DNA of 64,000 bases from the NCBI GenBank assembly GCA_033551855.1, contig JAWSUI010000018.1, positions 1,078 to 65,077 on the forward strand. Reading direction: 5' to 3'. Positions 15,919 to 62,694 of this stretch are shown here, in pieces; the first letter of the stretch is position 1; the number at the start of each line of letters is the position of its first letter. The notes under the pieces were generated by a model. That model was not told where the DNA came from. It did not search any database and was given only the letters and a program-made list of their open reading frames with translations. The position numbers and the translations under genes are program-made. Origin of the DNA: Deferrisomatales bacterium. Its GTDB lineage: Bacteria; Desulfobacterota; Deferrisomatia; Deferrisomatales; JACRMM01.

Positions 15919-16130
15919 CCCGCTGGGCACCGTTTCGAACGGCAGCGGATTGCGGAGCGAAACGCAAGGCCCCCCGACTGCGCTTTCCCGGGGGATCGAG
16001 ACCCCGGGCCCAGAATCCACCACCACAGTGTGAGGCGGAGTCCGGGAGCCCAGGAGTGCAGCCCCGCACCGCATCCACCGAATCGACGAGGCCGGGGCAA
16101 ACGGGTGAAGGCCGGCGCACCGGCGACTGC

Positions 16131-16214
16131 GGGGACACCTCTTCGTATGACCGCGGATGGCGGGGCGAAACGCAGGGGCTCCCGGACTCCGCTTGCCGAC
16201 CAGCCGGTGATTCC
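16131..16214 (+). repeat. Intergenic repeat module R4
   Basis: Matches the reverse complement of 10367-10449. Confidence 0.8.
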
Positions 16215-20271: not shown

Positions 20272-20433
20272 GGTTGCGGTGGGCGGTGCCCACCCTACGG
20301 GTCCATCGCCGAGATCGGGGGCCCGATGGAAACCCACACAGATCGAAACAGAACCAGAATTCCTCCACGTCTCGGCGCCTCTGCGCGAGATCGTTCTTGC
20401 CCTGGATTGACCCACTGGGTTTCCGGAAGGGCC
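20272..20433 (+). repeat. Composite intergenic repeat: module R1 (about 85 nt) fused to module R2, followed by a partial R4 (20461-20498)
   Basis: R1 (TGGTTGCGGTGGGCGGTGCCCACCCTACGGGTCCATCGCCGAGATCGGGGGCCCGATGGAAACCCACACAGATCGAAAC) recurs at 31729 and 51877. The R2 part matches 13085-13159. Confidence 0.8.
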
Positions 20434-26081: not shown

Positions 26082-26157
26082 GGGCCGTTAGCTCAGTTGG
26101 TAGAGCACCTGACTTTTAATCAGGTGGTCGCAGGTTCGATCCCTGCACGGCTCACCA
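26082..26157 (+). tRNA. tRNA-Lys (anticodon UUU), CCA encoded
   Basis: Folded by hand. Acceptor stem GGGCCGT/ACGGCTC, anticodon stem CCTGA/TCAGG with loop CTTTTAA, T-arm GCAGGTTCGATCCCTGC, discriminator A plus CCA. Confidence 0.9.
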
Positions 26158-26419: not shown

Positions 26420-26743
26420 CTACAGGCTCGGGCTCGGCCCGAGCGGCCCGAGCCCTTTCCATGGCCGCGCGATACCGACGCCCGCTCCTACGCTCCGCAG
26501 TGTGAATGTCCGACCGTGTCGACAACCCTGCACCTCCCGTGCGGTGCGCCCGTAGAAGAGGACCGCGGCAGGGCGGTACGGAAACAGCCTTTTCGGGCTG
26601 CAGACCTTAGCCGCGGAAGTCGAGGGCGCGTGGGGAGAGGCCAGGAGCACCACCTCCTCCAGCTGCCACAGGCGAGCGGGTGCCGAGCCCTCCCGGTAGG
26701 CGGCAGAGAACAGAACGTTGGCGTCCAGGAAGACGCGGTCCAC
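26420..26743 (-). pseudogene. PIN-domain toxin, N-terminal part only
   Basis: Starts at GTG. The opening VDRVFLDANVLFSAAYREGSAPARLWQLEEVVLLASP is PIN-like. After about 40 aa the frame degenerates into Pro/Arg/Gly text. Confidence 0.55.
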
Positions 26744-26746
26744 GGA

Positions 26747-26905
26747 CTACGGCCGATCGTGGGGGATCGCGGCGGGGTCCAGGCCCATCCGGCGCACCTC
26801 GGCCACCGCCTCCTCGTAGTCCTCGTCGTCCGCGGCGTTCTGAAGCAGGAACTCTGCCTTGCGCTCTGGGGTATAGCCATCCGCTCCCCGCCTTCCCCAG
26901 GATCT
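26747..26905 (-). pseudogene. Antitoxin C-terminal fragment with no start codon
   Basis: The frame reads ...YTPERKAEFLLQNAADDEDYEEAVAEVRRMGLDPAAIPHDRP and stops 3 nt before the PIN start. It is open only from an in-frame TGA at 26906-26908, with no ATG, GTG or TTG. Confidence 0.5.
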
Positions 26906-26929
26906 TCATGCACGAGGCAGGAGACGGTC

Positions 26930-27222
26930 GGTGCTGGTTTCCGGGCCCGCTTCGCGTTCCGCTTCGTTGCCCCGGCGTCTACGTTCTTCTCCAGCTCCTT
27001 GACCGCAGAGGCGTGTTCCAGGTGTGCGTCGGCGAGCCCGGTCGCGGGGTAGGTGTCGAACTGCATCCGTTTGGGCTTGCCGTCGAAACGATACACGAAG
27101 ACCCAGGTCTTCCTCCCCGTGGGAGCCACGCGGAGCCCGAACCCTGGCCGCCCATCCTCCCGGACTTCATAGCGGGTCGCCTTGGGATGGAGGGATCGGA
27201 CCACCTTGTCGGTAAACACCAT
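26930..27222 (-). pseudogene. Tyrosine integrase, N-terminal arm-type DNA-binding domain only (DUF4102-like)
   Basis: The sequence MVFTDKVVRSLHPKATRYEVREDGRPGFGLRVAPTGRKTWVFVYRFDGKPKRMQFDTYPATGLADA is typical of P4-type integrase N-termini. No core-binding or catalytic domain follows. Confidence 0.6.
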
Positions 27223-27256
27223 GACCGCGTCCTCCGTCTCGAGTGCTACCCATCCG

Positions 27257-28009
27257 CTACCCAGTTTGGCCGAGATCGTCGAAGGTGCGGATGTCGAACC
27301 GGCGAAGGGCCGTCTTCCGGACCTGCCACTCGATCCGCCAGACGTCGCTCTCTCGGCGCCGAAGGACGAAGAACCAGACCTTGTGGCTCTTTTCGGCGAT
27401 CTCCGCAACCTTGTCGTAGACGCGAAGGACGACGTTTCCCTTGCCGAAGGTGAACGTCTGGACCTTGCCGTTCTCCCGGTGCTGGCTGTCCTTGGTCGCG
27501 CGGGTCGTGAAGGCGTCCTCGTCGAAGTCGACGACGGGCAGGAGGTAGTCGAAGCAGAAATCCACCCGCGAGAGCCCCTCGCGCTGGTCACGCTCGAAGC
27601 CGACGCTTCGGGCCCAGGCGAGAAACTTCGCGTGCAGGAGATAGCCGGACTCTCGCCAGAGGGCTTGGCTTCGGAAGGTGACGAAGAAGTTCGGGCGGTT
27701 GTGGGGCCCGCACTCGATGGTGAAGTCGCCGTTGCTCAGAACGTAGGGGTAACCGGACTTCGAGCCGCCGGCCTGGACGAGAAACTCCCCCTTGCCGCAC
27801 GCTACCGCCACGGCTTCCCGCCCCCTCCCCTGCGCCGCTCGTTCCTTGCCCAGGGACACCGCGTCGAAGAAGTCGGCGTCCGGCCGGCCGGTCGGCTGCA
27901 GGTAGTAGGCGCACTGGACCGTGTCCAGCCGGTCGTTTACCGGAAGAACCCCGTTCTCGAGGATATCGTCGCGGGGAGAAGGGGCCGGGCGCTGCGGCTG
28001 TGGGGACAC
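27257..28009 (-). CDS. Rep_trans-like replication initiation protein, probably truncated at both ends
   Basis: Blocks: LSRVDFCFDY, TFTFGKGNVVLRVYDKVAEI, WRIEWQVRKTAL. These fit the rolling-circle/phage Rep_trans pattern. At 250 aa it is short for the family. Confidence 0.5.
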   Translation of the reverse strand: MSPQPQRPAPSPRDDILENGVLPVNDRLDTVQCAYYLQPTGRPDADFFDAVSLGKERAAQGRGREAVAVACGKGEFLVQAGGSKSGYPYVLSNGDFTIECGPHNRPNFFVTFRSQALWRESGYLLHAKFLAWARSVGFERDQREGLSRVDFCFDYLLPVVDFDEDAFTTRATKDSQHRENGKVQTFTFGKGNVVLRVYDKVAEIAEKSHKVWFFVLRRRESDVWRIEWQVRKTALRRFDIRTFDDLGQTG

Positions 28010-31646: not shown

Positions 31647-31728
31647 AGAGGGGGGGACGTAAGTGAAATCGTGCGTTTCCCCCAGGACCAGAGGGGGGGA
31701 CGTAAGTGAAATCGTGCGTTTCCCCCAG
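31647..31728 (+). repeat. Two identical 39-nt direct repeats separated by 4 nt
   Basis: AGAGGGGGGGACGTAAGTGAAATCGTGCGTTTCCCCCAG occurs at 31647-31685 and 31690-31728. Each copy can fold, with a G-run pairing a C-run around an 18-nt loop. Confidence 0.9.
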
Positions 31729-31895
31729 CGGTTGCGGTGGGCGGTGCCCACCCTACGGGCCCATCGCGGAGGTCGGGGGCCCGATGGGAACCCACACAGA
31801 TCGAAACAGAACCATCCTTTGTCTTTCCCGGCGCCTCTGCGGCTCTGCGCGAGAACGCAATGGTCCTCGCACGCACAGAACGCCCGGAAGCTTCT
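31729..31895 (+). repeat. Composite intergenic repeat: module R1 fused to inverted module R3
   Basis: The R1 part matches 20272-20355 and 51877-51958. The distal part is the reverse complement of the R3 half of the MITE-like element. Confidence 0.8.
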
Positions 31896-36873: not shown

Positions 36874-38090
36874 GCGTCCCCCCCCTGCATCCGGCCCAAC
36901 ACCGTCGCCAGGTCCTTGTCCCCGCGACCCGAGAGGCTCACCACCACCGCCCCGTCCTCCGGCAGGGCCCGGGCCACCTCCCCCACCCGGGCCAGGGCGT
37001 GGGCGCTCTCCAGGGCCGGCAGGATCCCCTCGGTCCGGGCCAGGCGGTGGAAGGCGGCCAGGGCCTCCTCGTCCGTCGCCGAGAGCACCCGCACCCGCCC
37101 CGAGCGGGCCAGCCACGCCACCTCCGGGCCGACCCCGGGGTAGTCCAGGCCCGCCGAGATCGAGTGGGCCTCCGTGACCTGGCCGTCGTCGTCCTGGAGG
37201 AGGTAGGACTTCTGGCCGTGGAGCACGCCGACCCGCCCGCCCAGGATGGCCGCCGCGTGGCGGCCGCTGCCCACCCCCTCCCCGGCCGCCTCCACGGCGA
37301 CGAGGTCCACCGGGTCGTCCCGAAAGGCGGTGAAGATCCCCAGGGCGTTCGAGCCGCCCCCGATGCACGCCACCACGGCGTCCGGGAGCCGCCCGAGGGC
37401 GGCCAGGCACTGCTCCCGGGCCTCCTCGCCGATCACCCGCTGCAGCTCCCGCACCATCAGGGGGTACGGGTGGGGCCCGGCCACGGAGCCGATGACGTAG
37501 AAGGTGTCCGCCACGTGGGTCACCCAGTGGCGGATCGCCTCGTTCATCGCGTCCTTGAGGGTGCGGCTCCCCGACCTCACGGACACCACGCGGGCCCCCA
37601 GCAGCCGCATCCGCTCCACGTTGGGCGCCTGGCGCCGCACGTCCTCCTCCCCCATGAACACGGCGCACTCCAGGCCGAAGAGCGCCGCCGCGGTGGCGGT
37701 GGCCACCCCGTGCTGGCCGGCCCCGGTCTCGGCGATGACCCGCCGCTTGCCCATGCGCCGGGCCAGGAGGACCTGCCCGAGGGTGTTGTTGATCTTGTGG
37801 GCCCCCGTGTGACACAGATCCTCCCGCTTGAGGAAGACGTGCGCGCCCCCGAGCTCGGCCGTGAGCCGGCGGGCCGGGGTCAGGGGCGTGGGCCGCCCCA
37901 CGTAGTCTCCCAGGAGGCGCCGGAGCTCCCCCCGGAAGCCCGGGTCGGCCTGCGCCTCCGCCAAGGCCTCCGCGAGCTCCTCCAGAGCGGGCATCAAGGT
38001 CTCGGCCACGTACCGCCCGCCGAAGGGACCGAAGTGCCCCCGGTCGTCCGGGTACGGGTACGGGTACGGGTACGGCTGCACGCTGCTCAT
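36870..38090 (-). CDS. trpB: Tryptophan synthase beta chain
   Basis: ATG at 38090 with a GGAGGT Shine-Dalgarno. Motifs: [41 protein letters not shown]. An N-terminal PYPYPYPYP tract is encoded by (GGGTAC)x4. Confidence 0.95.
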
Positions 38091-38109
38091 GGCACCTCCG
38101 AACGGCAAG

Positions 38110-38270
38110 GGCGTTCCGGGTGAAGGGCGGTTCGATGTGAAGGGCTGTTCGATGTGAAAGGCGGTTCAAGGTTAAGCTGTTCTGGGTTCAACATCGAACG
38201 TCGAACAGATTCCAACGTCGCACAGGTTCTAACATCGAACATCGAACGGTTGTTCTGCCCTCCCCCAGCC
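38110..38270. repeat. Intercistronic word-repeat hairpin (GTTCGATGT / ACATCGAAC arms) between trpF and trpB
   Basis: GGTTCGATGTGAAGGGCTGTTCGATGTGAAAGG (left arm) faces AACATCGAACGTCGAACAG...AACATCGAACATCGAACGG (right arm). It shares CGAACrGTTGTTCTGCC with 54505-54521. Confidence 0.85.
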
Positions 38271-38274
38271 CCCG

Positions 38275-38892: not shown

Positions 38893-39683
38893 CGCTCCGG
38901 ACTCTTCCGCACGAAGCGGCGCAGGGCCGCCCCCGGGTCGGGCTCCCGCACCAGAGCCTCCCCGATGAGGAACGCCCGGGCGCCGAACCGGGCGAGCTCG
39001 TCCAGGTCCTCCGGCCGGCCCAGGCCGCTCTCCGCCACGGCCAGGGTGCCGGGCGGGCACCGGGGCAACAGGTCCCGGCTCACCTGCAGGTCCACCCGGA
39101 AGGTGCGCAGGTCCCGGTTGTTGACCCCGATGAGGCGCGCACCGCATCCGGCCGCCAGCCCCAGGTCCGCGGCGTCGTGCACCTCCACCAAGGGCGCGAG
39201 GCCGGCCTCCCGGGCCAGCTCGACGTACCGGGGGGTCTCGTCCCCCAGGAGCGCCGCGATCAGGAGCACCAGGTCCGCCCCCGCCGCCCGCGCCTCCCAG
39301 ACCTGGTAGGGGTCGAGCACGAAGTCCTTGTACAGCAGCGGCAGCGAGACCGCGGCCCGCACCGCCTCCAGGTCCGCGACGCTCCCGCCGAAGTGGTCCG
39401 GCTCGGTCAGGACCGAGACGGCCAGGGCGCCGGCCTCCTCGTACTGCCGGGCCAGGGAACTCGGGTCCAGCTCCGGCCGCAGCGGCCCCTTCGAGGGGCT
39501 GCGGCGTTTGATCTCGGCGATCACCGGCCGGCGGGCGGGCGGCAGGGCCGCCAGGGCGGCGACCGGGTCCCGGGCCGGGGCTCGCGCCAGGGCCCGCTCC
39601 CGCAGGGCCTCCAGGGGCTCCCGGGCCCGCGACTCCTCCACCCGCCGCCTGCGGGTCCGGGCGATCTCGTCCAGAACGGTCAT
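38889..39683 (-). CDS. trpC: Indole-3-glycerol phosphate synthase
   Basis: The ATG at 39683 overlaps the trpD stop (ATGA). Motifs: [53 protein letters not shown]. Confidence 0.9.
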
Positions 39684-40741
39684 CGGTTCGTCAGCTCCGC
39701 CAGGCGCCGCAGCTTCTCCCGGGCCCGGCCGTCGTCCACGGCCTCCGCGGCCAGGCGCACCCCCTCGGCCAAGCCCGGCGCGACCCCCGCGACCGTCAGG
39801 GCCGCCGCCGCGTTCAGGAGCACCACGTCCCGCCGAGGCCCCGCCTCCCCGGCGAGGACTTCCCGCACGAGGGCCGCGTTCTCTTTGGCGTCCCCGCCCC
39901 GGATCGACTCCGCCGGGGCCGCGGCGAGCCCCAAGTCCTCGGGCCGCACCTCGTACTCCGTCACCGCCCCGTCCCGGAGCTCGGCCACGTGGGTGGGCCC
40001 CGTGATCGTCAGCTCGTCCAGTCCGTCCTCGCCGTGGACCACGAAGGCCCGCCGGCTCCCCAGGCGGCCCAGGACCGCGGCCAGCATCCCGGTGAGCTCC
40101 CGCCGGTAGACCCCCAGCACCTGGCACGAGGCGCCCGCAGGGTTCGTCAGCGGCCCCAGGATGTTGAAGATCGTGCGGATCCCGATCTCCCGGCGCACCG
40201 GAGCCACGTGCTTCATGGCCGAGTGCAGGAGCGGCGCGTAGAGGAAGCCGATGCCGATGGTCTCGATGCACTCCTGCACCCGCTCCGGCGTCACGTCCAG
40301 GTTCACCCCCAACGCCTCGAGGACGTCGGCGCTCCCGCAGCGGCTCGAGACCGCCCGGTTGCCGTGCTTGGCGACGCGGACTCCGGCGCCCGCCAGCACG
40401 AAGGCCGTGGTGGTGGAGATGTTGAAGGTCTGGGTGGCGTCTCCCCCCGTGCCGCAGGTGTCGACAATGGTCTCGAGGTCCACGTTGATCTCGTCCCGGT
40501 CGATGGAGACCACCGGGGCGGACCGCGGTCCCACCCGGATCGGCGTGGCCCGCTCCCGCATGACCCGGGCGGCACCGGTGATCTCCTCCACCGTCTCCCC
40601 CTTCATCCGGAGCGCCGTCAGGAAGGCCGCCATCTGGGCCGGTGTGGCCTCGCCGCCCATGATCGCCTCCATGGCGTCGATCATCTCCCCCTCGGTCAGA
40701 TCACGCCGCTCCACCAGCTTGTGGATCATGTCTTTCAGCAA
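39680..40741 (-). CDS. trpD: Anthranilate phosphoribosyltransferase
   Basis: Starts at TTG 40741; the N-terminal length matches homologues as I recall them. Motifs: [39 protein letters not shown]. Confidence 0.9.
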
Positions 40742-40759
40742 GGCAGCTCTCCGTTGGCC

Positions 40760-41035
40760 AGTGAGTGGTGACCGTCGTCTGTCTTCCGTCCTCGGTCTTC
40801 CGTCCGCCGTTGTCCGTCCCTGTCGTGGGCCGGGGTCCGGTTGATTCGTTTGATTCTACTTCGTGTGATGAGTTGGGTTCGTTAGATCCGGCGTACCGCT
40901 CCAAGCCATCGACCCAACTGCCGAACCGCTAAACCGGTCCGACCAGCTTCTCAACCAATCAACCCAATGAAACCAGATTTTCCTTGCCCCCAAGACCTCG
41001 AACCTCGAACAGCTTCCAACCTCGAACACAGGGTT
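40760..41035. repeat. Intercistronic word-repeat element between trpG and trpD
   Basis: On the + strand it reads CCGTCC-type words (40785-40825), a GGTTGATTCGTTTGATTC arm, AACCAATCAACCCAATGAAACC (40953-40974), then CCTCGAAC words (40994-41029). Confidence 0.85.
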
Positions 41036-41608
41036 TCACACCGGCACCTCCAGGAAGTTGCGCAGGATGTCCATCCCGGCCGCGGTCAGGATCGACTCGG
41101 GGTGGTACTGGAGGCCGTAGAGCCGGGCGTCGTCGGCGGCGATCCCCATGATCTCGTCGTCCTCGACCGTCCAGGCCGTGCGGCGGAAACGGGCCGGCAG
41201 GGTGCCGGGCCGGATCACCAGGGAGTGGTAGCGCGTCGCCTCGAAGGGGTTGGGGATGCCCCGGTACAGCCCGGTGCCGTCGTGGTGAACGGCCGAGACC
41301 TTGCCGTGCATGATCCGCTTGGCCCTCACGATCTCCGCCCCGAAGGCGTAGCCCATGGCCTGGTGGCCCAGGCACACCCCCAGCAGCGGCACCCGCCCGT
41401 CGAGCCGCCGGATGAGCTCCACGCTCACCCCTGCCCCCGAGGGTTCGCCGGGGCCCGGGGAGACGACCACCCTCTCCGGCCGCAGGCGCTCGACCTCCGC
41501 AGCGGTGATCTTGTCGTTGCGGAACACCGTCACCTCCTCCCCCAGAATCCCGAAGTACTGGACCAGGTTGTAGGTGAAGGAGTCGTAATTGTCGATCATC
41601 AGCAGCAT
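41036..41608 (-). CDS. trpG: Anthranilate synthase component II (glutamine amidotransferase)
   Basis: Sequence: MLLMIDNYDSFTYNLVQY, catalytic GVCLGHQ, and an HPES His-Glu block. Confidence 0.9.
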   Translation of the reverse strand: MLLMIDNYDSFTYNLVQYFGILGEEVTVFRNDKITAAEVERLRPERVVVSPGPGEPSGAGVSVELIRRLDGRVPLLGVCLGHQAMGYAFGAEIVRAKRIMHGKVSAVHHDGTGLYRGIPNPFEATRYHSLVIRPGTLPARFRRTAWTVEDDEIMGIAADDARLYGLQYHPESILTAAGMDILRNFLEVPV

Positions 41609-41858
41609 TGTAGATCCAAGTTTACGGTTAAAAACTGATGGATGCCAAATGGTTGCTTGGTATTATTTGGTTTATTTGTTTAATTGGTTTGATTGGGTTG
41701 ATTGGTTTTACAGCTGGTTCGATTGTTTTGACAGGTACCTGAAACTAGTCAGTTCAGTCATCAAACGAATCAAATTAGACAAACCAATTAAGTTAAACCA
41801 ATTGAACCAATCAACCCAATCAAACGCCTCCGTCCTCCGTCCTCCGGACAGTCCCCCG
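41609..41858. repeat. AT-richer intercistronic word-repeat hairpin between trpE and trpG
   Basis: A perfect 21-bp stem: GTTTGATTGGGTTGATTGGTT (41690-41710) pairs with AACCAATCAACCCAATCAAAC (41805-41825). It is flanked by (CCGTCCT)n at 41826-41847. Confidence 0.9.
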
Positions 41859-43325
41859 TCACCCCCCCTCCAGCCCGGCGGCGGCCACGCGCAGGGCGCG
41901 CCGCAGGGCTTCGGCCTTGTGCAGGGTCTCCTCGTACTCCCGCGCGGGGTCCGAGTCGGCGACGATGCCCGCGCCGGCCTGCAGGTAGACCCTGCCGCCG
42001 TGGAAGACCATGGTCCGGATCGTGATGCACGTGTCCACGTTCCCGTCGAACCCCAGGTAGCCCACGGCGCCGGCATACGCCCCGCGCTCCCGGGGCTCGA
42101 GCTCGGAGATGAGCTCCATGGCCCGGACCTTGGGCGCCCCCGAGACCGTGCCTGCCGGAAAGGCGGCACCGAGGGCCTCGAGGCCGTCCACCCCTTCCCG
42201 CAGCTCCGCCGAGACCGTGGACACCAGGTGCATCACGTGGGAGTAACGCTCCACGGCGAAGGACTCCTCGAGCCGAACCGCCCCCGGCCTGGCCACCCGC
42301 CCCAGGTCGTTCCGCCCCAGGTCCACCAGCATCACGTGCTCGGCCCGCTCCTTGGCGTCGGCCAGCAGCTCCGCCTCCAGGGACGCGTCCTCGGCGGCGG
42401 TCGCCCCCCGGGGCCGGGTGCCCGCGATGGGGCGGACCACCGCCCGGTTCCCCTCCACCCGCACCATCACCTCCGGGCTCGCCCCCACCAGGGTCTCCTC
42501 CCCCATGGCCAGGTGGAAGAGGTAGGGGCTCGGGTTGAGGGCGCGCAGCGCCCGGTACGCGGTGAAGGGGTCGACCGCGCAGGGCCCCTCGAAGCCCTGG
42601 GAGAGGACCACCTGGATCGCCTCGCCGGCGTGGACGACCTCCCGCGCCCGGAGCACCATGGCCTCGAAGAGCTGCCGCGGGATCACCGGCAGGACCTCCG
42701 GGGGCGGCCGGCGCGGCGGGAACACCGCCCCCTCGGGCAGGGGTCGGCGCAGGCGCGCCAGCACCCCGTCGATCGCCTCGCGGGCCCGGTCGTAGCCTCG
42801 CCGCCCTTCACGGGAATCGACGAGCACGAGGACGTCGAGGGTCTTCCGCACGTTGTCGAAGGCCAGGAGCTTGCGGGGGGCGAAGAGACGCAGGTCCGGG
42901 AGCCCCGCGGGGTGCTCGGGCAGCCGCGGGATCTCCTCGAAGAGCCGGGCCGCACCGTACCCCAGGTAGCCCACCAGCCCCCCCGCCAGCCGGGGGAGCC
43001 CGGGCAGCCGCGGGAGCCGGTGCTGGGCCAGGAGCCCGCGCAGGGCCGCCAGGGGGGCGCCGGACCGCTCCAGGTCCTCCCCCCGCCGGACCCACGTCTC
43101 GTTGCCCCGTGCCTCCACGGTCAGGAAGGGGTCGAACCCCACCAGAGAATAGCGGCCCCACTGGGTACCCCCCTCCACGCTCTCCAGCAGGAAGGACCAG
43201 GGACCGGCAGCGGCCTTGAGGTACGTGCTCACCGGGGTCTCCGTGTCCGCCGGGACGCGCCGCACCACCGGCACCAGGGGGTAGCCCCGCGCCAGCTCCT
43301 CGAAGGTGCTCCGATCGGTCGTCAT
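41859..43325 (-). CDS. trpE: Anthranilate synthase component I
   Basis: ATG at 43325 (MTTDRSTFEELARGYPLVPV). Motifs: LLESVEGG, IAGTRPRG, HVMLVDLGRND, GAYAGAVGY. The 73 upstream codons of the track ORF cross REP sequence. Confidence 0.9.
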   Translation of the reverse strand: MTTDRSTFEELARGYPLVPVVRRVPADTETPVSTYLKAAAGPWSFLLESVEGGTQWGRYSLVGFDPFLTVEARGNETWVRRGEDLERSGAPLAALRGLLAQHRLPRLPGLPRLAGGLVGYLGYGAARLFEEIPRLPEHPAGLPDLRLFAPRKLLAFDNVRKTLDVLVLVDSREGRRGYDRAREAIDGVLARLRRPLPEGAVFPPRRPPPEVLPVIPRQLFEAMVLRAREVVHAGEAIQVVLSQGFEGPCAVDPFTAYRALRALNPSPYLFHLAMGEETLVGASPEVMVRVEGNRAVVRPIAGTRPRGATAAEDASLEAELLADAKERAEHVMLVDLGRNDLGRVARPGAVRLEESFAVERYSHVMHLVSTVSAELREGVDGLEALGAAFPAGTVSGAPKVRAMELISELEPRERGAYAGAVGYLGFDGNVDTCITIRTMVFHGGRVYLQAGAGIVADSDPAREYEETLHKAEALRRALRVAAAGLEGG

Positions 43326-43585: not shown

Positions 43586-43842
43586 GTCGGCTCCGCCCCC
43601 AAGAGGCAAAGCACGCAACAACGTCAGGGGGCCGCGGTTCGGTTCCCGCGGCCCCCTGCCCTCAGACAGAAAAACCGCGGACGGTGTGTGGGCCGTCCGC
43701 GGCTCGTTGCTCTCGACACGACACGCCGGCGGTCAGCCCCTCCTCACGGGCCACCGCCACCACCAACCGGTCTGCAGGCTCGGTTCACGACGCATGGCCG
43801 GTACGCTACCAGAAGCCCCCGGGGCGGGTCAACGCCCTTCCC

Positions 43843-44001
43843 GGGAGCTTCCGTGGCTTCTGTGGGTGCGAGGAAACACCGTGTTCTCGCGCAGGGGCGC
43901 ACCAGAGGCGCCGGGAAAGACATCGAATTCCTCCGCGTCCCAGCGGCTCTGCGCGAGATCGTTCTTGCCCTTGATGGACCCACTGGGTTTCCGAAAGGGC
44001 C
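43843..44001 (+). repeat. MITE-like intergenic element, copy B
   Basis: Aligns with 13004-13159 over its full length. Confidence 0.8.
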
Positions 44002-46609: not shown

Positions 46610-46698
46610 GGGCCAGGCTCCTGTGCGGGAGGGGGCTTCCGGACCGTCCCTACCTACCACCCCCGCCCCGGAATCGCAACGGCCGGTGAAAACCGAGG

Positions 46699-46746
46699 AC
46701 GGAAGACGGAGGACGGAGGACCGGTCCTCCGTCCTCCGTCCTCCGT
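46699..46746. repeat. 48-nt near-perfect palindrome built from GGACGGA heptamers
   Basis: The arms at 46705-46722 and 46723-46740 pair perfectly (18 bp). With one mismatch the pairing extends to 24 bp per arm, centred on CCGG at 46721-46724. It lies between divergent glgP and the NUDIX gene. Confidence 0.9.
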
Positions 46747-51876: not shown

Positions 51877-52044
51877 TGGTTGCGGTGGGCGGTGCCCACC
51901 CTACGGGTCCATCGCCGAGATCGGGGGCCCGATGGAAGCCCACACAGATCGAAACGGCACCACTCTTTGTCTTTCCCAGCGCCTCCGCGCCTCTGCGCGA
52001 GAACGCGATGGCTCCTCCCACCCACAGAATACCCGGAAGCTCCC
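51877..52044 (+). repeat. Composite intergenic repeat: module R1 fused to inverted module R3
   Basis: Same organisation as 31729-31895. Confidence 0.8.
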
Positions 52045-52080: not shown

Positions 52081-53295
52081 TCACTCCCGGTGGTCCGCCT
52101 CCACCGCGGCCCGGACCTCGTCGTAGATCCCCGGCATCGCGGCCTCCACCCGGTTCCAGTTGGGGATCGAGGGGGCCCCCAGGGGATTCTCCAGGAAGTC
52201 GTCCCCCGCCCGCTCCAGGGCGCGGCCGAACCCCTCGGCCAGGGTGTCCTCCCCGTGGCGGTCGTAGGCCAGCCCGTTCAGGGCCGAGAGGTCGGAGAAG
52301 CGCCCGATCGCGTCCTGGGCGCAGCGCAGGTACGCCGCCCGCAGGCTCAGGAAGAAGGAGGTGGAGAGCGTCAACCCCTCGCTCGCCAGGGCCTGGAACA
52401 GGGTGGAGGCGATCTCCCGGCCCATGCGCATCAGACCCGCGGGCTTCGGCGCGTCGAGGCCGGGGTCCTGGTGCTTGTGCTCGTAGTCGATGCCCAGGTC
52501 CGCCTGGCACACCCGGCGGGTGGCGTAGTTTCGGTACACCTCGGCCAGGGTCCCGACCTCCAGCCCCCAGTTCGACGGGATGCGGTTCACCCGGGCCACG
52601 TCCGCGTCCATGCAGAACTCCCCGGCCAAGGGGTACCGGAAGCTGTCCAGGTAGGTCAGGAAGGGGGTGTGGCCCAGCATCTTCCCCAGGGCCCGGAGCA
52701 GGGGCGTGACGAAGATCCGCGTGACCCGGCCGTGGAGCCGGTCCGTCACCCGGGCGTAGTACCCCTTGCAGAACTTGTAGTCCAGCGTCGGGGCCACGAT
52801 CGGGTAGGCGAGGCGCGCCAGCAGCACCCGGTCGTAGGTGAGGATGTCGCAGTCGTGGAGCGCGATCGCCCGCACCGCCTCGTCCCCCAGCACGTACCCG
52901 TACGCCAGCCACGCGGAGAGCCCCTTGCCCGGCTGCCCGAGGTACAGGTTGTTCTCCCGCATGCGGGTCTTGAGCTCCGTCAGCCGCGGGCCATCGACCC
53001 ACAGGATGCGGACCTTCTGGGGCAGCCGCGCGAAGAACTCCCGGGCGTGGGCGAACTCCGCCGGCCCCGCGTCCCCGAGGCTGACCACCACCTCCCGCAG
53101 GTAGGGGATGTGCTGCAGGTGATCCAGGATCGCCGGGAGCGCCTGTCCCTGGAGCTCCGAGTACAGGGACGGGAGCACCAGAGCGAGGGGCCGGTCCTCG
53201 ACGAACCGTACGAGCTCGGCCTCCATCCGGGGCACGTCCCGCGGCCCGAGCTCCTGCAGGGTCGTGATCACGCCGTTCTGAAAGAAATCCGCCAT
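52081..53295 (-). CDS. Glucosyl-3-phosphoglycerate synthase-like glycosyltransferase (compatible-solute synthesis)
   Basis: ATG at 53295 with an AAGGAG Shine-Dalgarno. The MADFFQNGVITTLQEL N-terminus and the HDCDI block fit the GpgS/MpgS-type family as I recall it. It is paired with an MPGP-family phosphatase gene. Confidence 0.65.
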   Translation of the reverse strand: MADFFQNGVITTLQELGPRDVPRMEAELVRFVEDRPLALVLPSLYSELQGQALPAILDHLQHIPYLREVVVSLGDAGPAEFAHAREFFARLPQKVRILWVDGPRLTELKTRMRENNLYLGQPGKGLSAWLAYGYVLGDEAVRAIALHDCDILTYDRVLLARLAYPIVAPTLDYKFCKGYYARVTDRLHGRVTRIFVTPLLRALGKMLGHTPFLTYLDSFRYPLAGEFCMDADVARVNRIPSNWGLEVGTLAEVYRNYATRRVCQADLGIDYEHKHQDPGLDAPKPAGLMRMGREIASTLFQALASEGLTLSTSFFLSLRAAYLRCAQDAIGRFSDLSALNGLAYDRHGEDTLAEGFGRALERAGDDFLENPLGAPSIPNWNRVEAAMPGIYDEVRAAVEADHRE

Positions 53296-53452
53296 CCCAT
53301 CACTCCTTGTCCTCGTCAAAGGCTGTGCGATGTTAAAGGCTGTGCGATGTTTTACGTTAGAAGCGGTTCGACGTTCTCACCCGTCACAACCTTCCCATCC
53401 TCCCGCCAAGGCTCTTCACGTCGAACATCGCACATCGAACGTCGTACGGATC
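53296..53452. repeat. Intercistronic word-repeat hairpin (TGTGCGATGTT / AACATCGCACA arms)
   Basis: GGCTGTGCGATGTTAAAGGCTGTGCGATGTT (53322-53352) faces CGAACATCGCACATCGAACG (about 53421-53440). It lies between the phosphatase and synthase genes. Confidence 0.85.
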
Positions 53453-54295
53453 TCAACATCGAACCGACTCCAACCACTCCAGCACCGCCCGGCACCAGCC
53501 CCGGGGCCCCACCCCCTCCACCGTGCGGACCCCGGGGGGCCGGGGGGTCAGGTGCCCGCCCCCCGGGCGCTCCACGAGCACGCCGTCGCCCGCCTCCCGG
53601 AGCATGGGCAGATCGTTCTCGCTGTCCCCCAGGGCGAGGGAGGCGATCTCACGCCCCCACGTGCGGGCGGCGGCGTCCAGCAGCCACCGCACCGCCCTGC
53701 CCTTGTCCGACGGGCCCACCAGGTGCCAGAACCGGCCGCCCCGGGTGAGGCCCAGGCCCCGCCCGGCGAGCCAAGACCGCGCCTCCTCCACGGAACGAGG
53801 TGCCGGCTCCGGCTCCCAGAGGAACGGCTCGTCGAAGTCCCGCTGCCGGGCCAGCCGGGCCTGCCGCAGGGGAAGGCCGGTGCAGCTCGAAACCTCTGCG
53901 TCGTCCATGTCCCCGAAACCGCGCAGGCCCTGCCCGTACCGGCCCCGGAGCTCCCCCAGGGCCTCCCGGAGCTCGCCGTACGCCGCGCCGAACACCCGGG
54001 CGGGAAGCCCCGCGAAGCGCTCGGGGAAGACCGGTTCCAAGGGCCCGCCGCCCGTGAGGAGCACGGCCCCCCCGTTCTCGGGGATGAAGGGGCCCGTCAG
54101 CCCCAGCCGTCGCTGGAGCCCGAGGATCTCCCCGCGGGTCTTCGACGAGCACAGCACCAGGGGGACGGCCGCCTCCCCCAGCGCGTCCAGCGCCGGCCGC
54201 GCCGGCTCGTAGTCGTAGGTCTCGTGGTCGAGGAGCGTGCCGTCCAGGTCGGTGAACACCAGCCCGGCGGGCCCCCCGGGAATTTGCGGGCACAC
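53453..54295 (-). CDS. HAD-IIB phosphatase of the mannosyl/glucosyl-3-phosphoglycerate phosphatase family
   Basis: GTG at 54295 with a GGAGG Shine-Dalgarno. Motifs: FTDLDGTLLD, LCSSKTR, GDSENDLPML. Confidence 0.75.
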   Translation of the reverse strand: MCPQIPGGPAGLVFTDLDGTLLDHETYDYEPARPALDALGEAAVPLVLCSSKTRGEILGLQRRLGLTGPFIPENGGAVLLTGGGPLEPVFPERFAGLPARVFGAAYGELREALGELRGRYGQGLRGFGDMDDAEVSSCTGLPLRQARLARQRDFDEPFLWEPEPAPRSVEEARSWLAGRGLGLTRGGRFWHLVGPSDKGRAVRWLLDAAARTWGREIASLALGDSENDLPMLREAGDGVLVERPGGGHLTPRPPGVRTVEGVGPRGWCRAVLEWLESVRC

Positions 54296-54473
54296 GGATC
54301 GCCTTCCTCCCCTTCGGGTGCGTCCCTCTATAGCAGTCGTCCCCGCCCCCCGCAAGCCGACCCGGCCCGGCACCCCCCGTCTCACCCCGCTCGGGCCTGA
54401 AGCTGGAAGCCAAGAGCGGGAAGCCGGAAGCGGGGGACAGGCCCCAACTCCCGCCTCCGTTGTCGGGGTTTCA

Positions 54474-54577
54474 CCCCGAACCCCGAACCCCGAACCCCGA
54501 ACATCGAACAGTTGTTCTGCCGTCCTCTATCCTCTGTCCTCCGTCCTCCGTCCTCCGTCTTCCGTCTTCTGTCCTCG
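54474..54577 (+). repeat. Two adjacent heptamer arrays: (CCCCGAA)x4-5 and (GTCCTCC)x8
   Basis: 54474-54501 holds four exact CCCCGAA units. CATCGAACAGTTGTTCTGCC follows. 54522-54577 holds eight GTCCTCC-type units (gtcctct atcctct gtcctcc x3 gtcttcc gtcttct gtcctcg). Confidence 0.9.
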
Positions 54578-57073: not shown

Positions 57074-57220
57074 GCCCGGGAACGGACCGCAGAGGAACAA
57101 AGGCGTGGAGACGCCCCCACGACGGCTGTCGGGCGGGTGTCTCCGCGTCCTCCGCGCCCTCCGCGTCTCCGCGGTTCCATCGTCCCGTCGACGCCGCGCC
57201 GCACCGAAGGGAAACGGCCC

Positions 57221-58144
57221 GTGTTCGAGCTCCTGATCCAGAACCTCCTGAACGCCCTCCAGTGGGGCAGCTTCTACGCCCTCATCGCCCTGGGCTACAG
57301 CCTGGTGTACGGGGTGCTGCTGCTCATCAACTTCGCCCACGGCGACGTCTTCATGGTGGGCGCCTACATCGCGTTCTTCGTGGCCACCTTCTTCCTGGGC
57401 TCCTTCGGGGTCATCCCGGGGCTGCCCGGCTGGGCTGTGCTCGCCGCGACGATCCCCCTCACCATGGTCCTCACGGCCTGCGTCGGGGTCTCCCTGGAGC
57501 GGATCGCCTACCGGCCCCTGCGGCGCAAGGGGGCCAACCGGCTCTACGTCGTCATCACGGCCCTCATGTGCGGGCTGATCCTCGAAAACGGCAACCTCGC
57601 CCTCCTGGGCGCGAGCCGCCGGCGCTTCCCGCCACTGGTCGAGGAGACCGTCTACACGGTGGGCGGGGTCAGCTTCACCAACCTGCGCCTCGCGGTCATC
57701 GTGGCGGCGATAGCGGTCTTCGCGCTCCTGCACACCGTCGTCACCCGGACCAAGATCGGCATGGCCATGCGGGCCATCTCCTACGACAAGTTCGCCGTGC
57801 CGCTCATGGGCATCCCCATCGATACCGTCATCGTGTTCACCTTCGTGCTGGGGTCCTCCATGGCCGGCCTGGCGGGCATCCTGTTCGCCATGTCCTACCC
57901 GGTGCTCGACCCGTACATGGGGGCGCTGATCGGCTGGAAGGCCTTCATCGCCGCGGTGGTCGGCGGCATCGGCGACATCCGCGGGGCCTTCCTCGGCGGC
58001 TTCCTCCTGGGGGCCGTGGAGATCATGGTGGTGGCCTTCTTCCCCTCCACCTTCCGGGACCTGCTGGCCTTCACCATCCTGCTCGCCATCCTCTCCATCA
58101 AGCCCACCGGCCTCTTCGGCGTGGCGAAGACGACGAAGATCTGA
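57221..58144 (+). CDS. livH: Branched-chain amino acid ABC transporter permease (LivH-type)
   Basis: GTG at 57221. Sequence: LLNALQWGSFYALIALGYSLVYGVLLLINFAHGDVFMVGAY. Confidence 0.85.
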   Translation: MFELLIQNLLNALQWGSFYALIALGYSLVYGVLLLINFAHGDVFMVGAYIAFFVATFFLGSFGVIPGLPGWAVLAATIPLTMVLTACVGVSLERIAYRPLRRKGANRLYVVITALMCGLILENGNLALLGASRRRFPPLVEETVYTVGGVSFTNLRLAVIVAAIAVFALLHTVVTRTKIGMAMRAISYDKFAVPLMGIPIDTVIVFTFVLGSSMAGLAGILFAMSYPVLDPYMGALIGWKAFIAAVVGGIGDIRGAFLGGFLLGAVEIMVVAFFPSTFRDLLAFTILLAILSIKPTGLFGVAKTTKI

Positions 58145-58398
58145 GGACGGGGGACGGGGGACGGGGGGAGAATGCGTTTGATTGGTTCCATTGGTCCCAT
58201 TGGTCCTATTGGTCCTATTGGTCCTATTGGTCCCATGGGCCCGGCAGTCGGCCCGATGGGTGAGACCGGTTCGCCGCATCAAACCAATCAACCCAATCAA
58301 ACGAATTGAACCAATATAACGAAACCCCCCACACCGAACACCGAACATCGAACAGGTTCTCAAACATCGAACAGGTCCTAAAACGTCGAACAGCCCCT
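58145..58398. repeat. Intercistronic word-repeat hairpin between livH and livM
   Basis: In order: (GACGGGG)x3, CGTTTGATTGG plus (yATTGGTCC)x6, a GC-rich loop, AAACCAATCAACCCAATCAAACG (58281-58303), then CCGAACA/TCGAACA words running up to the livM ATG. Confidence 0.9.
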
Positions 58399-59412
58399 AT
58401 GAAACACCTCTCCACCCCCGCCGCCCTGGCCGCGATCCTCGCGGTGCTGGTCTTCCTCGCCCACACCGGCGCGATGGACCAGTACACCCAGACCGTGCTC
58501 ATGTTCATGGGGGTGAACATCATCCTGGCGGCGAGCCTCAACCTCGTGAACGGCTACATGGGCGAGTTCTCCTGCGGCCACGGGGGCTTCATGGCGGTGG
58601 GGGCCTACGTCTCCTCCGTGCTCACGGTGCTGCTCTTCACCTCCGACCGGGTCTTCGGCGCGCCGCTCCTGCCCCCGGGCTGGGCCTTGTTCGGCTTTCC
58701 GCTGGTCCTGCTCGTCGGCGGCGCCGCGGCCGCGGTGGCCGGGCTGGTGGTGGCGATCCCGTCGTTTCGCACCCGGGGCGACTACCTGGCCATCATCACT
58801 CTCGCGGCCAACTACATCTTCATCAGCGCCATCGAGAACATGGACACCATCGGGGGTCCCCGGGGCTTCATGGGCATGCGGCGGGTGGTCAATACCATGG
58901 GAGAGACCCTGGGGCTCCCGTGGATGCTCATCTGGGTCTTCGTCTTCACGGTAGGCACGATCTGGGTGCTGCGGCGCTTCGTCTACTCCACCTACGGGCG
59001 GGGGGTCTCGGCCGTCGCCCAGGACGAAGTGGCGGCCGAGATCATGAGCGTCAACACCAACAAGATGAAGATGATCGCCTTCATGCTCTCCTCCGGGCTG
59101 GCCGGCATCGCCGGGGGGCTCTTCGGCCACATCGTGGGCTACGTCAACCCGGGCTCCTTCACCATCCTCAAGTCCACCGAGGTCCTCGTGATGGTGTACC
59201 TGGGGGGCATGGGCTCCCTGAGCGGCTCGGTGATGTCCGCCATCCTCTTCACCCTGCTCCTCGAGGCCCTGCGGCCCCTGCAGATCATCAAGTGGATCGT
59301 GGTCCCCCTGCTCCTGATCGTGCTCATGCAGTTCCGGCCCGAGGGGATCCTGGGCAACCGCGAGTTCTCCGACGTCTTCCCGCGCCTGCGGCGCCTGTAC
59401 AGCTTCAAGTAG
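58399..59412 (+). CDS. livM: Branched-chain amino acid ABC transporter permease (LivM-type)
   Basis: ATG at 58399. Sequence: GVNIILAASLNLVNGYMGEFSCGHGGFMAVGAY and GDYLAIITLA. Confidence 0.85.
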   Translation: MKHLSTPAALAAILAVLVFLAHTGAMDQYTQTVLMFMGVNIILAASLNLVNGYMGEFSCGHGGFMAVGAYVSSVLTVLLFTSDRVFGAPLLPPGWALFGFPLVLLVGGAAAAVAGLVVAIPSFRTRGDYLAIITLAANYIFISAIENMDTIGGPRGFMGMRRVVNTMGETLGLPWMLIWVFVFTVGTIWVLRRFVYSTYGRGVSAVAQDEVAAEIMSVNTNKMKMIAFMLSSGLAGIAGGLFGHIVGYVNPGSFTILKSTEVLVMVYLGGMGSLSGSVMSAILFTLLLEALRPLQIIKWIVVPLLLIVLMQFRPEGILGNREFSDVFPRLRRLYSFK

Positions 59413-59599
59413 CGCGCGGAAGAGGCGTGGGACGGGATGCCAGGATGGACGGGATGAACAGGATCGGCAGGATGGGGGAACGCCCGTCGGAACCCCCCCC
59501 GCGGATCGAGGCGCGCGCCGGGGCGGCTTCCGGACCACCCCGTGAAGGGGGTCATCCCGTCCATCCCGTCATCCCGTCCAAGACCCCCTGAACGAGCCC
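59413..59599. repeat. Intercistronic word-repeat hairpin (GGGACGGGATG / CATCCCGTCC arms) between livM and livG
   Basis: GGGACGGGATGCCAGGATGGACGGGATGAACAGGATCGGCAGGATGG (59431-59477) faces GGTCATCCCGTCCATCCCGTCATCCCGTCC (59550-59579). Confidence 0.9.
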
Positions 59600-60367: not shown

Positions 60368-61092
60368 TGCTCTCCGTCGAGAACCTGCGGGTAAGATACG
60401 GGGCGGTCGAAGCCCTCCACGGCATCTCCTTCCACGTGGAGGAGGGGGAGATCGTCACCCTCATCGGCGCCAACGGCGCGGGCAAGAGCACCACGCTCCT
60501 GAGCATCTGCCGCATCCCGCCCCCCGACGGCCCCCGGGTGGTCGAGGGCGAGATCCGGCTGCGGGGCAAGAGCCTCCTGCGCACCGAGGCCCACCGGGTC
60601 GCGGCCGAGCACAAGACCGCCCTCGTGCCCGAGGGGCGCCGGATCTTCGGCAACCTCACCGTGCGGGAGAACCTCGAGTTGGCCACCTACGCCCGGAGGG
60701 GGGACCCCCGGGTGCCCCGGGACTACGAGCGGGTCTTCGAGCTCTTCCCCCGGCTCGCGGAGCGCGCCAGGCAGCGCAGCGAGTCCCTGAGCGGGGGCGA
60801 GCAGCAGATGCTCGCCGTGGGCCGGGCGCTCATGTCCGGGTGCACCTTCCTGCTCCTCGACGAGCCCTCCATGGGCCTGTCGCCGCTGCTCAAGTACGAG
60901 CTCTTCCGCAACCTGAAGCGCCTGAACCGGGAGGACGGGATGACGATCCTCCTCGTGGAGCAGAACGCCAACCTGGCGCTGCACCTGGCTCACCGCGGCT
61001 ACGTCCTCGACACCGGCGACATCGTCGCCCAAGGCACGAGCGAAGACCTCCTGGGCAACCCGGAGGTCAAGAAGGCGTATCTGGGGGGGTAG
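60367..61092 (+). CDS. livF: Branched-chain amino acid ABC transporter ATP-binding protein (LivF-type)
   Basis: The ATG at 60367 overlaps the livG stop (TGATG). Motifs: GANGAGKST, LSGGEQQMLAVGRAL, LLLDEPSMGL. Confidence 0.9.
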   Translation: MLSVENLRVRYGAVEALHGISFHVEEGEIVTLIGANGAGKSTTLLSICRIPPPDGPRVVEGEIRLRGKSLLRTEAHRVAAEHKTALVPEGRRIFGNLTVRENLELATYARRGDPRVPRDYERVFELFPRLAERARQRSESLSGGEQQMLAVGRALMSGCTFLLLDEPSMGLSPLLKYELFRNLKRLNREDGMTILLVEQNANLALHLAHRGYVLDTGDIVAQGTSEDLLGNPEVKKAYLGG

Positions 61093-62499: not shown

Positions 62500-62648
62500 G
62501 GCCCTTCCGGAAACTCAGTGGGTCAACCAAGGGCAAGAACGATCTCGCGCCGAGCCGCTGGGGCGTGGAGCAGTTCTTTGTCGTTCCCGGCGCCTCCGCG
62601 GCTCCGCGCGAGAACCCGATGGTCCCTCGCGCCCACGGTACCGGAGGA
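62500..62648 (-). repeat. MITE-like intergenic element, copy D
   Basis: Reverse-complement alignment to 13004-13159. One end is slightly shortened. Confidence 0.75.
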
Positions 62649-62652
62649 CCAA

Positions 62653-62694
62653 ACCTCGAACCTCGAACCTCGAACCTCGCACATCGAACCGAAC
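62653..62694 (+). repeat. Heptamer array (ACCTCGA)x3 plus variants, abutting the tyrA stop
   Basis: The units read acctcga acctcga acctcga acctcgc acatcga accgaac. This is the same CGAAC word family as 40994-41029 and 54474-54510. Confidence 0.85.

Follow-up and report, generated by a model that had tools for sequence, protein, structure and literature searches.

Inverted short tandem-repeat arrays in the trpE–trpG spacer of a Deferrisomatales bacterium

The trpE–trpG spacer and related intergenic arrays

The DNA analyzed here is a 64,000-nt stretch of the genome of a Deferrisomatales bacterium (the window, at its full length), and our subject is element A, the hairpin-bearing spacer between the trp operon genes trpE and trpG. 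According to their NCBIfam names, trpE (41859–43325, 488 amino acids), trpG (41036–41608), trpD (39680–40741), and trpC are encoded on the minus strand, and a livK-like gene, livH (57137–58144), livM (58399–59412), and ATPase genes are encoded on the plus strand. At the other trp junctions, neighboring genes share 4 nt (ATGA at trpD/trpC and GTGA at both trpC/trpF and trpB/trpA), and therefore the three large spacers of this operon, trpE–trpG (250 nt), trpG–trpD (294 nt), and trpF–trpB (166 nt), stand out. A preliminary description, made from the letters of the window, had taken both operons to be tightly packed apart from such spacers, which it regarded as insertions. Tight packing is true of trp but not of liv, where livK–livH and livM–livG are gapped too. 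The view of the large spacers as insertions is supported by the otherwise overlapping trp junctions and by the 59 to 86 nt that separate trpE and trpG in close relatives.

Element A is far richer in AT than its surroundings, as had been noted, with 39% GC compared with 70.9% for the window. When 60-nt segments were scanned, values below 45% GC were found only at 41564–41841 (39%) and in two adjacent stretches at 58169–58354. The two arms of the hairpin are 21 nt each, are complementary at 21 of 21 positions (100%), and lie 97 nt apart. The perfect 21-bp stem of the preliminary description is therefore real, but its left arm occupies 41687–41707 rather than 41690–41710 and its interior measures 97 rather than 94 nt; overall, the earlier coordinates were off by 1 to 3 nt. 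Tandem Repeats Finder (TRF) placed the flanking tract, earlier given as (CCGTCCT)n at 41826–41847, at 41827–41846 on the forward strand as (CCTCCGT) with 2.9 copies, and located arrays of period 8 to 9 at 41657–41708. The order proposed for the trp sense strand (stop codon, GGAGGAC or GGACGGG words, GATTGG arm, loop, CCAATC arm, start codon) was confirmed. Prediction of the RNA fold, which had been named as a check, gave −51.3 kcal/mol for the 145-nt core hairpin (z = −6.6), and none of 200 shuffled sequences was equally stable. The GGA of the GGAGGAC words sits outside the hairpin loop. No intrinsic terminator-like site was found at the hairpin on either strand, and the 3′ arm is followed by CAAUUAAAC and no U-run. 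An assembly artifact is unlikely, because two independent assemblies also contain element B (the livH–livM spacer) and the core and because A joins the intact ends of trpE and trpG, yet for A itself there is one assembly only.

The 21-nt core was said to recur twice, and it does so: exactly at 58282–58302 in element B (1 nt from the earlier position) and with one mismatch at 40953–40973 in element C (the trpG–trpD spacer). When up to three mismatches were allowed, the window held five matches and 100 shuffles held none. The resemblance extends past the core. Elements A and B share 44 nt at ~86% identity, comprising the 3′ arm and its tail in the same sense orientation, and elements B and C share ~75 nt of interior plus arm at ~70% (40850–40923 versus 58242–58314). 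Although B lies on the opposite strand, it has the sense-strand order of the trp spacer, as claimed; its RNA fold has z = −3.1. Element C reads, in sense, GTTCGAGG words, CATTGGGTTGATTGG arm, GC-rich interior, degenerate GAATCAAAC arm, and GGACGG words. A family thus exists within the species, represented by these three window copies, which share more than the core, and by an array of CCAATCAAC in a sister strain (L310). The label of "archetype" given to element A was not upheld, since word arrays come in many varieties, of which the GATTGG hairpin is one, and none of the other genomes searched contains its core.

Between 36 and 63 kb, nine or more spacers are mosaics built from 7- to 9-nt words such as GGAGGAC, CATCGAACA, TTGATTGG, and ATTGGTCCC. 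The set comprises GGAGGAC/GGACGGG and their complement; CATCGAACA(G), CCTCGAA, CCCCGAA and their complement; TTGATTGGN; ATTGGTCCY; and GGACGGGAT. The GGAGGAC, CGAACA, and TTGATTGG families are common to nine window spacers (Table 1), six of which carry strong inverted arms of complementary words in an inverted-repeat scan. The tandem arrays have periods of 7, 8, and 9 nt and 2.9 to 8 copies (TRF; at 41827, 41657–41708, 58145, 58181, 54520, 46695, and other positions). Elements D and I have in common a joint, CATCGAACRGTTGTTCTGCC, between two word blocks. This joint and the A–B and B–C similarities (44 and ~75 nt) show that the modules are of common descent and were inherited together. Seven of the nine elements sit between genes that run in the same direction within operons of otherwise overlapping junctions, and GGAGGAC words also adjoin glgP, alr, and the liv genes.

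The trp operon has, in addition, a leader of its own. The sequence upstream of trpE, at ~43700–43795 (−), encodes a leader peptide with four Trp codons (MRREPSLQTGWWWRWPVRRG), after which come a terminator hairpin (CCGCGGACGG...CCGTCCGCGG) and a T-run; leader and terminator are also present in the relatives L081 and L175. The arrangement is that of classical ribosome-mediated attenuation. The start codons of trpG (41606–41608) and livM (58399–58401) have no recognizable Shine-Dalgarno sequence and are preceded by A/C-rich, G-poor word tails, whereas sites of the GGAG type are present at trpD and trpB. The AT-rich tail of A holds hexamers of sigma-70 type, TTGGCA-18-TAAACT, which end ~10 nt ahead of the trpG ATG and form the sole such match in 1.4 kb (shuffles, 0.1); they agree with the consensus at 9 of 12 positions, and that consensus is of the E. 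coli type and may not hold for the host lineage. One of the best-scoring names that NCBIfam gives TrpG is "aminodeoxychorismate/anthranilate synthase component II". A separate repeat, (CGGGTA)4.5 at 38049–38075, lies within the 5′ end of trpB and encodes (Pro-Tyr)4 of the TrpB N terminus; this coding region appears to have tolerated a short tandem repeat.

Table 1. Positions of the repeat elements and their parts in the window
Feature	Positions	Strand	Description
Element A	41609–41858	(−)	Whole trpE–trpG spacer, 250 nt, ~39% GC; trpE stop 41859–41861, trpG ATG 41606–41608
A, heptamers	41827–41846	(−)	(GGAGGAC) x ~3 in trp sense, directly after the trpE stop (TRF)
A, 5′ arm	41805–41825	(−)	GTTTGATTGGGTTGATTGGTT in trp sense, two 9-nt words
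A, interior	41708–41804	(−)	97 nt, degenerate TTGATTGG / CCAATCAA words; further imperfect pairings in several registers
A, 3′ arm	41687–41707	(−)	AACCAATCAACCCAATCAAAC in trp sense
A, 3′ arm and tail	41666–41708	(−)	44 nt ~86% identical to 58281–58324 (liv spacer), same sense orientation
A, sigma-70-like hexamers	41619–41648	(−)	TTGGCA-18-TAAACT in AT-rich tail; consensus match only
Element B	58145–58398	(+)	livH–livM spacer, 254 nt; (GGACGGG)3 at 58145–58167; (ATTGGTCCY)6 at 58181–58236; CGAACA words at 58331–58393
B, arms	58171–58195 / 58283–58307		25 nt, 84%; exact core 58282–58302
Element C	40742–41035	(−)	trpG–trpD spacer, 294 nt; core copy 40953–40973, 1 mismatch
Element D	38109–38274	(−)	trpF–trpB spacer; hairpin with TGTTCGATG / CATCGAACA word arms, 28 nt, 71%
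Element E	59413–59599	(+)	livM–livG spacer; arms 59430–59457 / 59552–59579, 28 nt, 93%, GGACGGGAT / ATCCCGTCC words
Element F	53290–53480	(−)	Hairpin with GTGCGATGTT / AACATCGCAC words; arms 53341 / 53411, 24 nt, 79%; upstream of gene 52081–53376
Element G	46692–46746	.	(GAGGACG)4 directly followed by (GTCCTCC)3; near-perfect palindrome, 28 nt, 96%
Element H	62648–62704	(−)	(AACCTCG)5.6, GTTCGAGG in sense; after chorismate mutase/prephenate dehydrogenase gene
Element I	54395–54576	.	Divergent region upstream of alr; (GGAAGCN)5, (ACCCCGA)4, CATCGAACAG, then (CCGTCCT)8
Second dispersed repeat	13043–13072(−), 15844–15873(+), 31827–31856(+), 43880–43912(−), 51975–52004(+), 62586–62615(+)		~50 nt of flank on each side

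Variation among strains and at orthologous junctions

Two sister strains, L310 (GCA_047921355.1) and L311 (SRR32287246), were recovered by an exact match to the LivM protein and are 99.5 to 99.6% identical to the window over 6.5 to 8.5 kb. Exact look-ups of TrpG, TrpD, and TrpC returned no other contig, and the strain comparison accordingly covers the liv side. Within the livH–livM spacer, the (GGACGGG) array has 4, 3, or 2 copies in the three strains, and the 9-mer array differs word by word; at positions occupied by ATTGGTCC in the window, L311 has words resembling TTGATTGG. The three strains do not differ in the arms, interior, or downstream words of this spacer. A comparison of L311 with the window gave 32 variant columns in 6.5 kb, and 20 to 21 of these fall inside ~120 nt of arrays, an excess of ~80-fold per base. 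Repeat-number polymorphism, for which the preliminary description had suggested looking, thus exists, and the arrays are the main difference between the strains.

One array spacer differs as a whole. In L310, livF and lysA are separated by 245 nt (5520–5765) composed of (GGTTCGG)4, (AACATCGAACAGCCCCT)5, CCTCCGTCC words, and (CCAATCAAC)5, the last of which is a fourth site for the core word and has no partner arm. The window has no such spacer between the convergent livF and lysA genes (61092–61103), and LysA overlaps livF there. The C terminus of the window LysA is changed and longer (...FEPDLLRPTPPDTPS versus ...FEPDVLGRP), and the end found in L310 agrees with that of a relative at 87% identity. 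The best reading of this difference is that the window strain has undergone a deletion.

Among named relatives, the best for TrpE and LivM come from Deferrisomatales and Deferrisoma palaeochoriense (72–81% identity). We collected the orthologous junctions of relatives through protein matches followed by contig look-up. The trpE–trpG and trpG–trpD spacers measure 250 and 294 nt in the window, 86 and 55 nt in L081 (83% TrpE identity), 59 and 32 nt in L175, 215 and 45 nt in L176, 308 and 370 nt in L084 (D. palaeochoriense), and 332 and 415 nt in L173. The livH–livM spacer measures 254 nt in the window, 240 nt in L304 (93% LivM identity), 56 nt in L307 (87% LivM identity), and 103 nt in L308. Arrays are present at livH–livM in four lineages and at trpE–trpG in most, with differing words, and the close relatives with 59- to 86-nt trpE–trpG spacers have no hairpin there. 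A cultured Deferrisoma bears arrays of its own at trpE–trpG, trpG–trpD, and livH–livM.

None of the relatives' trp or liv junctions contains GATTGG/CCAATC words, and they share 11-mers with the window spacers no more than expected by chance. Most consist of different words, and the set that belongs to a lineage turns up at many of its loci. D. palaeochoriense has GCCGCCWA, CACGGAGGA, GACCGAA, and CGTTAGGA with its complement. The words of L173 and L175 are GCCTTCYR, including an inverted pair with 34-nt arms (in L173, an inverted pair at 20310–20410), and those of L081, L177, L304, and L307 are GCGTGAA/GTCACGC, CCGTCAC, and TCCCATAGG. Relatives' words often contain no GGA (GCGTGAC, GGTGATC, and GCCTTCCA are examples), some array spacers have no inverted partner, and the more distant L176 and L182 showed no word arrays. 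The comparison of the same junctions in relatives that had been proposed therefore gave a divided answer: arrays are often present, but their words are different and lineage-specific, and there is no shared core. These junctions tend, as far as the compared sequences indicate, to keep arrays, and neither the words nor the lengths are conserved.

A regularity of layout runs through the arrays. G-rich words come first and C-rich words second in elements A, B, D, E, F, G, and I, in the L310 spacer at 5520–5765, and in L081, L084, L173, L304, L308, and L177. Because this layout is identical on either strand, it gives no direction of transcription, and the earlier suggestion of C-rich, rut-like tracts on the opposite strand becomes moot. 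Folding energies of sense and antisense strands likewise show no consistent bias, with four elements folding better in sense and four in antisense, and so selection at the RNA level cannot be claimed.

Searches for relatives and comparison with known repeat systems

The exact 21-mer core had no match in 185,579 species genomes. A degenerate form of it matched eight sequences in JGI metagenomes, all of them (CCAATCAAA)n microsatellites on unrelated contigs of 38 to 58% GC. A 16-mer gave, among the matches listed for the species genomes (at least 120 rows), chance single ones, none with a hairpin partner. Searches of element A with blastn returned no match in plasmids and only 43-nt chance matches to Prevotella Lak phages among phages. 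Rfam yielded no match for the spacers at gathering scores. At E ≤ 1, it gave only subthreshold hits in the trp region (E 0.68 for a plant microRNA model that lies over the hairpin and E 0.9 for one of an L19 leader in trpG) and none in the liv spacer. No transposase or Y1/RAYT (REP-associated tyrosine transposase) domain was found in the window proteins scanned, and no target-site duplication was found at the flanks of elements A, B, and C, where similarity fades into other word arrays. A miniature inverted-repeat transposable element (MITE) of the Correia or ERIC type was considered and rejected: terminal inverted repeats are present (21 of 21), but there is no target-site duplication and there are no discrete alignable ends.

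Other repeats and mobile-element traces in the window were recorded separately. A tRNA-Lys(UUU) gene (26082–26157, +) is accompanied by a match to the int-alpA RNA (26549–26617, −) and by an ORF (26488–27591, −) in which only the Arm DNA-binding domain of an integrase is recognizable; the region is probably the remnant of an integrated element. A second dispersed repeat of ~125 nt has six copies of ~75 to 90% identity (Table 1), is always intergenic, has no Rfam match, and contains an internal inverted repeat (TCTCGCGCAGAG / CTCTGCGCGAGA). At 31647–31728, upstream of a gene for an ABC-F ATPase, 43 nt are duplicated exactly and in tandem (AGAGGGGGGGACGTAAGTGAAATCGTGCGTTTCCCCCAGGACC x1.9). Two long GC-rich inverted repeats, at 10008–10054 / 10146–10192 (47 nt, 85%) and 16035–16067 / 16160–16192 (33 nt, 82%), have no coding periodicity around them, are not built of words, and have no Rfam match.

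Repetitive extragenic palindromic (REP) elements have a conserved GTAG-type head. Mycobacterial interspersed repetitive units (MIRUs) have units of 46 to 100 bp that carry coupled small ORFs, and their copy number differs between strains. Several established families share single traits with the window arrays and fail in their defining features. No conserved GTAG-type head is present in the window elements, the arms of which are tandem words rather than a fixed 20- to 40-nt palindrome, and no RAYT is encoded in the 64-kb window; nevertheless, REP elements and bacterial interspersed mosaic elements (BIMEs) resemble the arrays in being intergenic, often intra-operonic, palindromic, mosaic, species-specific, and able to stabilize upstream mRNA (PMC3479197). 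The Correia elements of Neisseria (CREE) and the ERIC MITEs have terminal inverted repeats and form long hairpins when co-transcribed, and RNase III, to which CREE binds, either cleaves or protects it (PMC2649163, PMC2229807). They also have discrete ends, target duplications, and a conserved core, and element A has none of these, its arms sliding in several registers. MIRU or variable-number tandem repeats and the TAACTGA heptamers of Beggiatoaceae are, like the arrays described here, tandem repeats at intra-operon junctions or just upstream of starts (PMC4679880). However, the TAACTGA repeats consist of one word, are direct and oriented toward the start codon, and are rarely inverted, unlike the window arrays (PMC4679880).

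Two other classes come closer. In cyanobacteria, arrays of the short tandemly repeated repetitive (STRR) type include an intercistronic hairpin between hupS and hupL whose function is unknown (PMC2670836). They share with the window arrays units of ~7 nt, dispersal among intergenic regions, intercistronic hairpins, and lineage-specific units, and they differ in phylum and words and in that the units here, of 7, 8, 9, and 17 to 19 nt, are combined as mosaics. The closest published precedent is the "multicopy nucleotide sequences" of Geobacter metallireducens, from the same phylum-level neighborhood (Thermodesulfobacteriota). These are described as paired tandem octa- or heptanucleotide sites on opposite strands, with variable spacing and unique to the species (Aklujkar et al. 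2009, PMC2700814); the units given there include GTTGCTYN, TCTCCGTS, MTYCTGA, and TWGTTGAY, and GGGACCG x4 elements at 49 places. The intergenic regions of G. bemidjiensis hold direct repeats of 6 to 42 nt (PMC2996986). The G. metallireducens sequences agree with ours in their 7- to 8-nt words, paired opposite-strand arrays, many intergenic loci, restriction to one species, and unknown function, and one word listed there, TCTCCGTS, resembles CCTCCGTC, the others being different. They differ in that the window arrays lie mainly inside operons, include a 9-nt AT-rich word in a genome of 71% GC, have perfect to near-perfect stems of 21 to 28 bp, and vary between strains as described above.

The arrays thus have the tandem 6- to 9-nt units and inverted pairs of the STRR/Geobacter class, as well as its reuse of units at many loci, as seen in nine spacers of the window, and its lineage specificity. 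Their words are not those of the published STRR1–3 heptamers or the Geobacter consensus sequences, where only TCTCCGTS and CCTCCGTC are similar; membership in the class does not call for identical words, given that the published examples are themselves unlike one another. On these comparisons, the best reading of element A would place it in this known, poorly understood class, and the most useful new facts concern the dynamics of the arrays at the level of strains and species.

Origin of the arrays and competing explanations

We consider it probable that element A is made up of two short tandem-repeat arrays in inverted orientation, that it belongs to a species-specific vocabulary of 7- to 9-nt words, and that it was produced by slippage and strand switching and is carried as a tolerated passenger. 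The arrays are structured, form a family, are hypervariable, and are not conserved; they change by whole units, are specific to lineages, are often complementary, and can be lost without obvious harm. Replication slippage would make and resize them by adding or removing whole words, and the complementary arms would arise from, and be homogenized by, intra-strand template switching or conversion. Such switching or conversion would explain a perfect 21-bp stem that is flanked by degenerate words. Arrays would then accumulate where insertions are tolerated, namely at non-overlapping junctions, and would not be needed for trp or liv function. Because element A lies inside the trp transcript, it should fold there into a stem of ~21 to 23 bp, which has the length of an RNase III substrate and is predicted to block 3′ exonucleases, and it would separate the translation of trpG from that of trpE. 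We regard such RNA effects as by-products and not as the reason for the element. Among the four hypotheses offered in the preliminary description, that of selfish hairpin or microsatellite elements fits best.

An adaptive role in the mRNA is unlikely, although several observations speak for it. The arrays would in that case be selected intercistronic signals for processing or stability, or hypermutable "tuning knobs" for cistron ratios in which the number of words sets stem strength or spacing. Consistent with this proposal are the position of seven of nine elements between co-directional genes of otherwise overlapping operons, the perfect or near-perfect 21- to 28-bp stems of A, E, and G, which reach RNase III substrate length, the persistence of arrays at livH–livM in four lineages and at trpE–trpG in most despite different words, and the start codons of trpG and livM, which lack a Shine-Dalgarno sequence and follow A/C-rich, G-poor tails. 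STRR hairpins have also been proposed as transcript stabilizers or translation couplers (PMC2670836). However, folding energies are split four to four between sense and antisense, close relatives manage with hairpin-free spacers of 59 to 86 nt, the window strain has lost one array spacer, and the variation between strains looks unconstrained. Far less credible is a periodic array bound by an RNA-binding oligomer, as the earlier suggestion of TRAP- or CsrA-type logic had it, or by a DNA-bending regulator of the IHF/HU type. A TRAP site consists of 9 to 11 (G/U)AG triplets spaced by 2 to 3 nt near trp genes, and CsrA targets have multiple GGA motifs in loops that are conserved among relatives. 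Element A has only ~3 GGAGGAC words at 7-nt spacing, and the trp operon has its own Trp-codon leader and terminator. Identical words flank unrelated genes, their copy number drifts among strains, and the relatives' words often have no GGA. The regular words with their periodicity of 7 to 9 nt, and a vocabulary common to the loci of one genome but not shared between genomes, would suit a co-evolving reader; IHF/HU binding was proposed for the G. metallireducens sites (PMC2700814), yet no exact IHF consensus was apparent here on inspection by eye.

Transposition is an improbable source. A nonautonomous element of the MITE or REP/BIME kind, copied by a hairpin-recognizing transposase or a RAYT-type enzyme, would account for a core found at three loci (exact in A and B, one mismatch in C), for a further CCAATCAAC array in L310, for shared flanks that reach beyond the core, for a foreign-looking GC content of 39%, and for BIME-like mosaics of modules, and the six copies of the ~125-nt family show that the genome tolerates dispersed repeats. 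Against it stand the missing target-site duplications at the arm ends, the lack of a transposase or Y1/RAYT domain in the window proteins scanned, where only the truncated integrase by tRNA-Lys was found, and the absence of the core from 185,579 species genomes, its metagenome matches being unrelated low-GC microsatellites. Plasmids gave no matches and phages chance ones only, the strain polymorphism between livF and lysA is better read as deletion, and changes in the arrays proceed in whole-word steps. We give similarly low weight to the idea, which is compatible with a passenger origin, that the AT-rich tail of A is an internal promoter for a leaderless or nearly leaderless trpG transcript, by which TrpG, possibly serving as PabA too, would be made under attenuation. 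The single sigma-70-like match just before an ATG that has no Shine-Dalgarno sequence, the dual name of TrpG, and the large spacers on both sides of trpG here and in two Deferrisoma genomes fit it, but the match is 9 of 12 to a consensus that may not be the lineage's own, and the spacers of L081 and L175 are short. That the words encode small proteins is very hard to credit. The candidates are a hydrophobic 34-residue peptide antisense to trp (41638–41742, +; MDAKWLLGIIWFICLIGLIGLIGF...) and a 45-residue Gly-Pro-Ile repeat peptide in liv sense (58174–58311, +). Their frames are open, 9-nt words keep the frame, and the liv ORF is open in all three strains; then again, 9-nt repeats without stop codons are open by construction, and with respect to the operons that host them the two ORFs are on opposite strands. 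Neither matches Pfam above threshold, codon composition is unlike that of the genome (G + C at third positions ~90% in real genes), and strain differences mostly change amino acids. The ORFs are probably by-products of the 9-nt words.

Several points weigh against slippage and strand switching as the whole account of the arrays. The C-rich-first order is almost absent, and so nearly invariant a G-first layout is not predicted by purely neutral slippage; a C-rich arm that emerged first would expose a Rho loading site, which is one possible reason for its rarity. A vocabulary shared genome-wide among loci could indicate a trans-acting reader, and arrays at the same junctions in several lineages could mean a function there that does not depend on the words. 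Element A is, moreover, far richer in AT than its sister copies. Note that the data comprise 64 kb of genome and ~9 kb from two sister strains, which bears on copy number and distribution. These points leave room for a bolder idea that we hold to be decidedly unlikely: each Deferrisomatales genome would keep its own word vocabulary through a dedicated trans-acting binder or an enzyme that writes or homogenizes the words, and the arrays, with their constant G-rich-first order, would be hypermutable knobs that set cistron stoichiometry, shield RNA from Rho, or do both.

The arrays add a new lineage, Deferrisomatales, to the species-specific intergenic short repeats, which have been on record for decades and on whose origin or function there is no agreement. 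They also supply new evidence from within a species, where arrays change by whole words and at ~80 times the rate of the DNA around them, and from between species, where junctions keep arrays and swap words. Any theory must explain two regularities, the genome-wide vocabulary and the near-invariant layout of G-rich words first and C-rich words second. On the practical side, arrays of this kind break assemblies made from short reads and could be used to mark strains. If it is true that arrays tune operon expression, they would constitute a general, overlooked regulatory layer; the trp hairpin itself is most likely a tolerated passenger.

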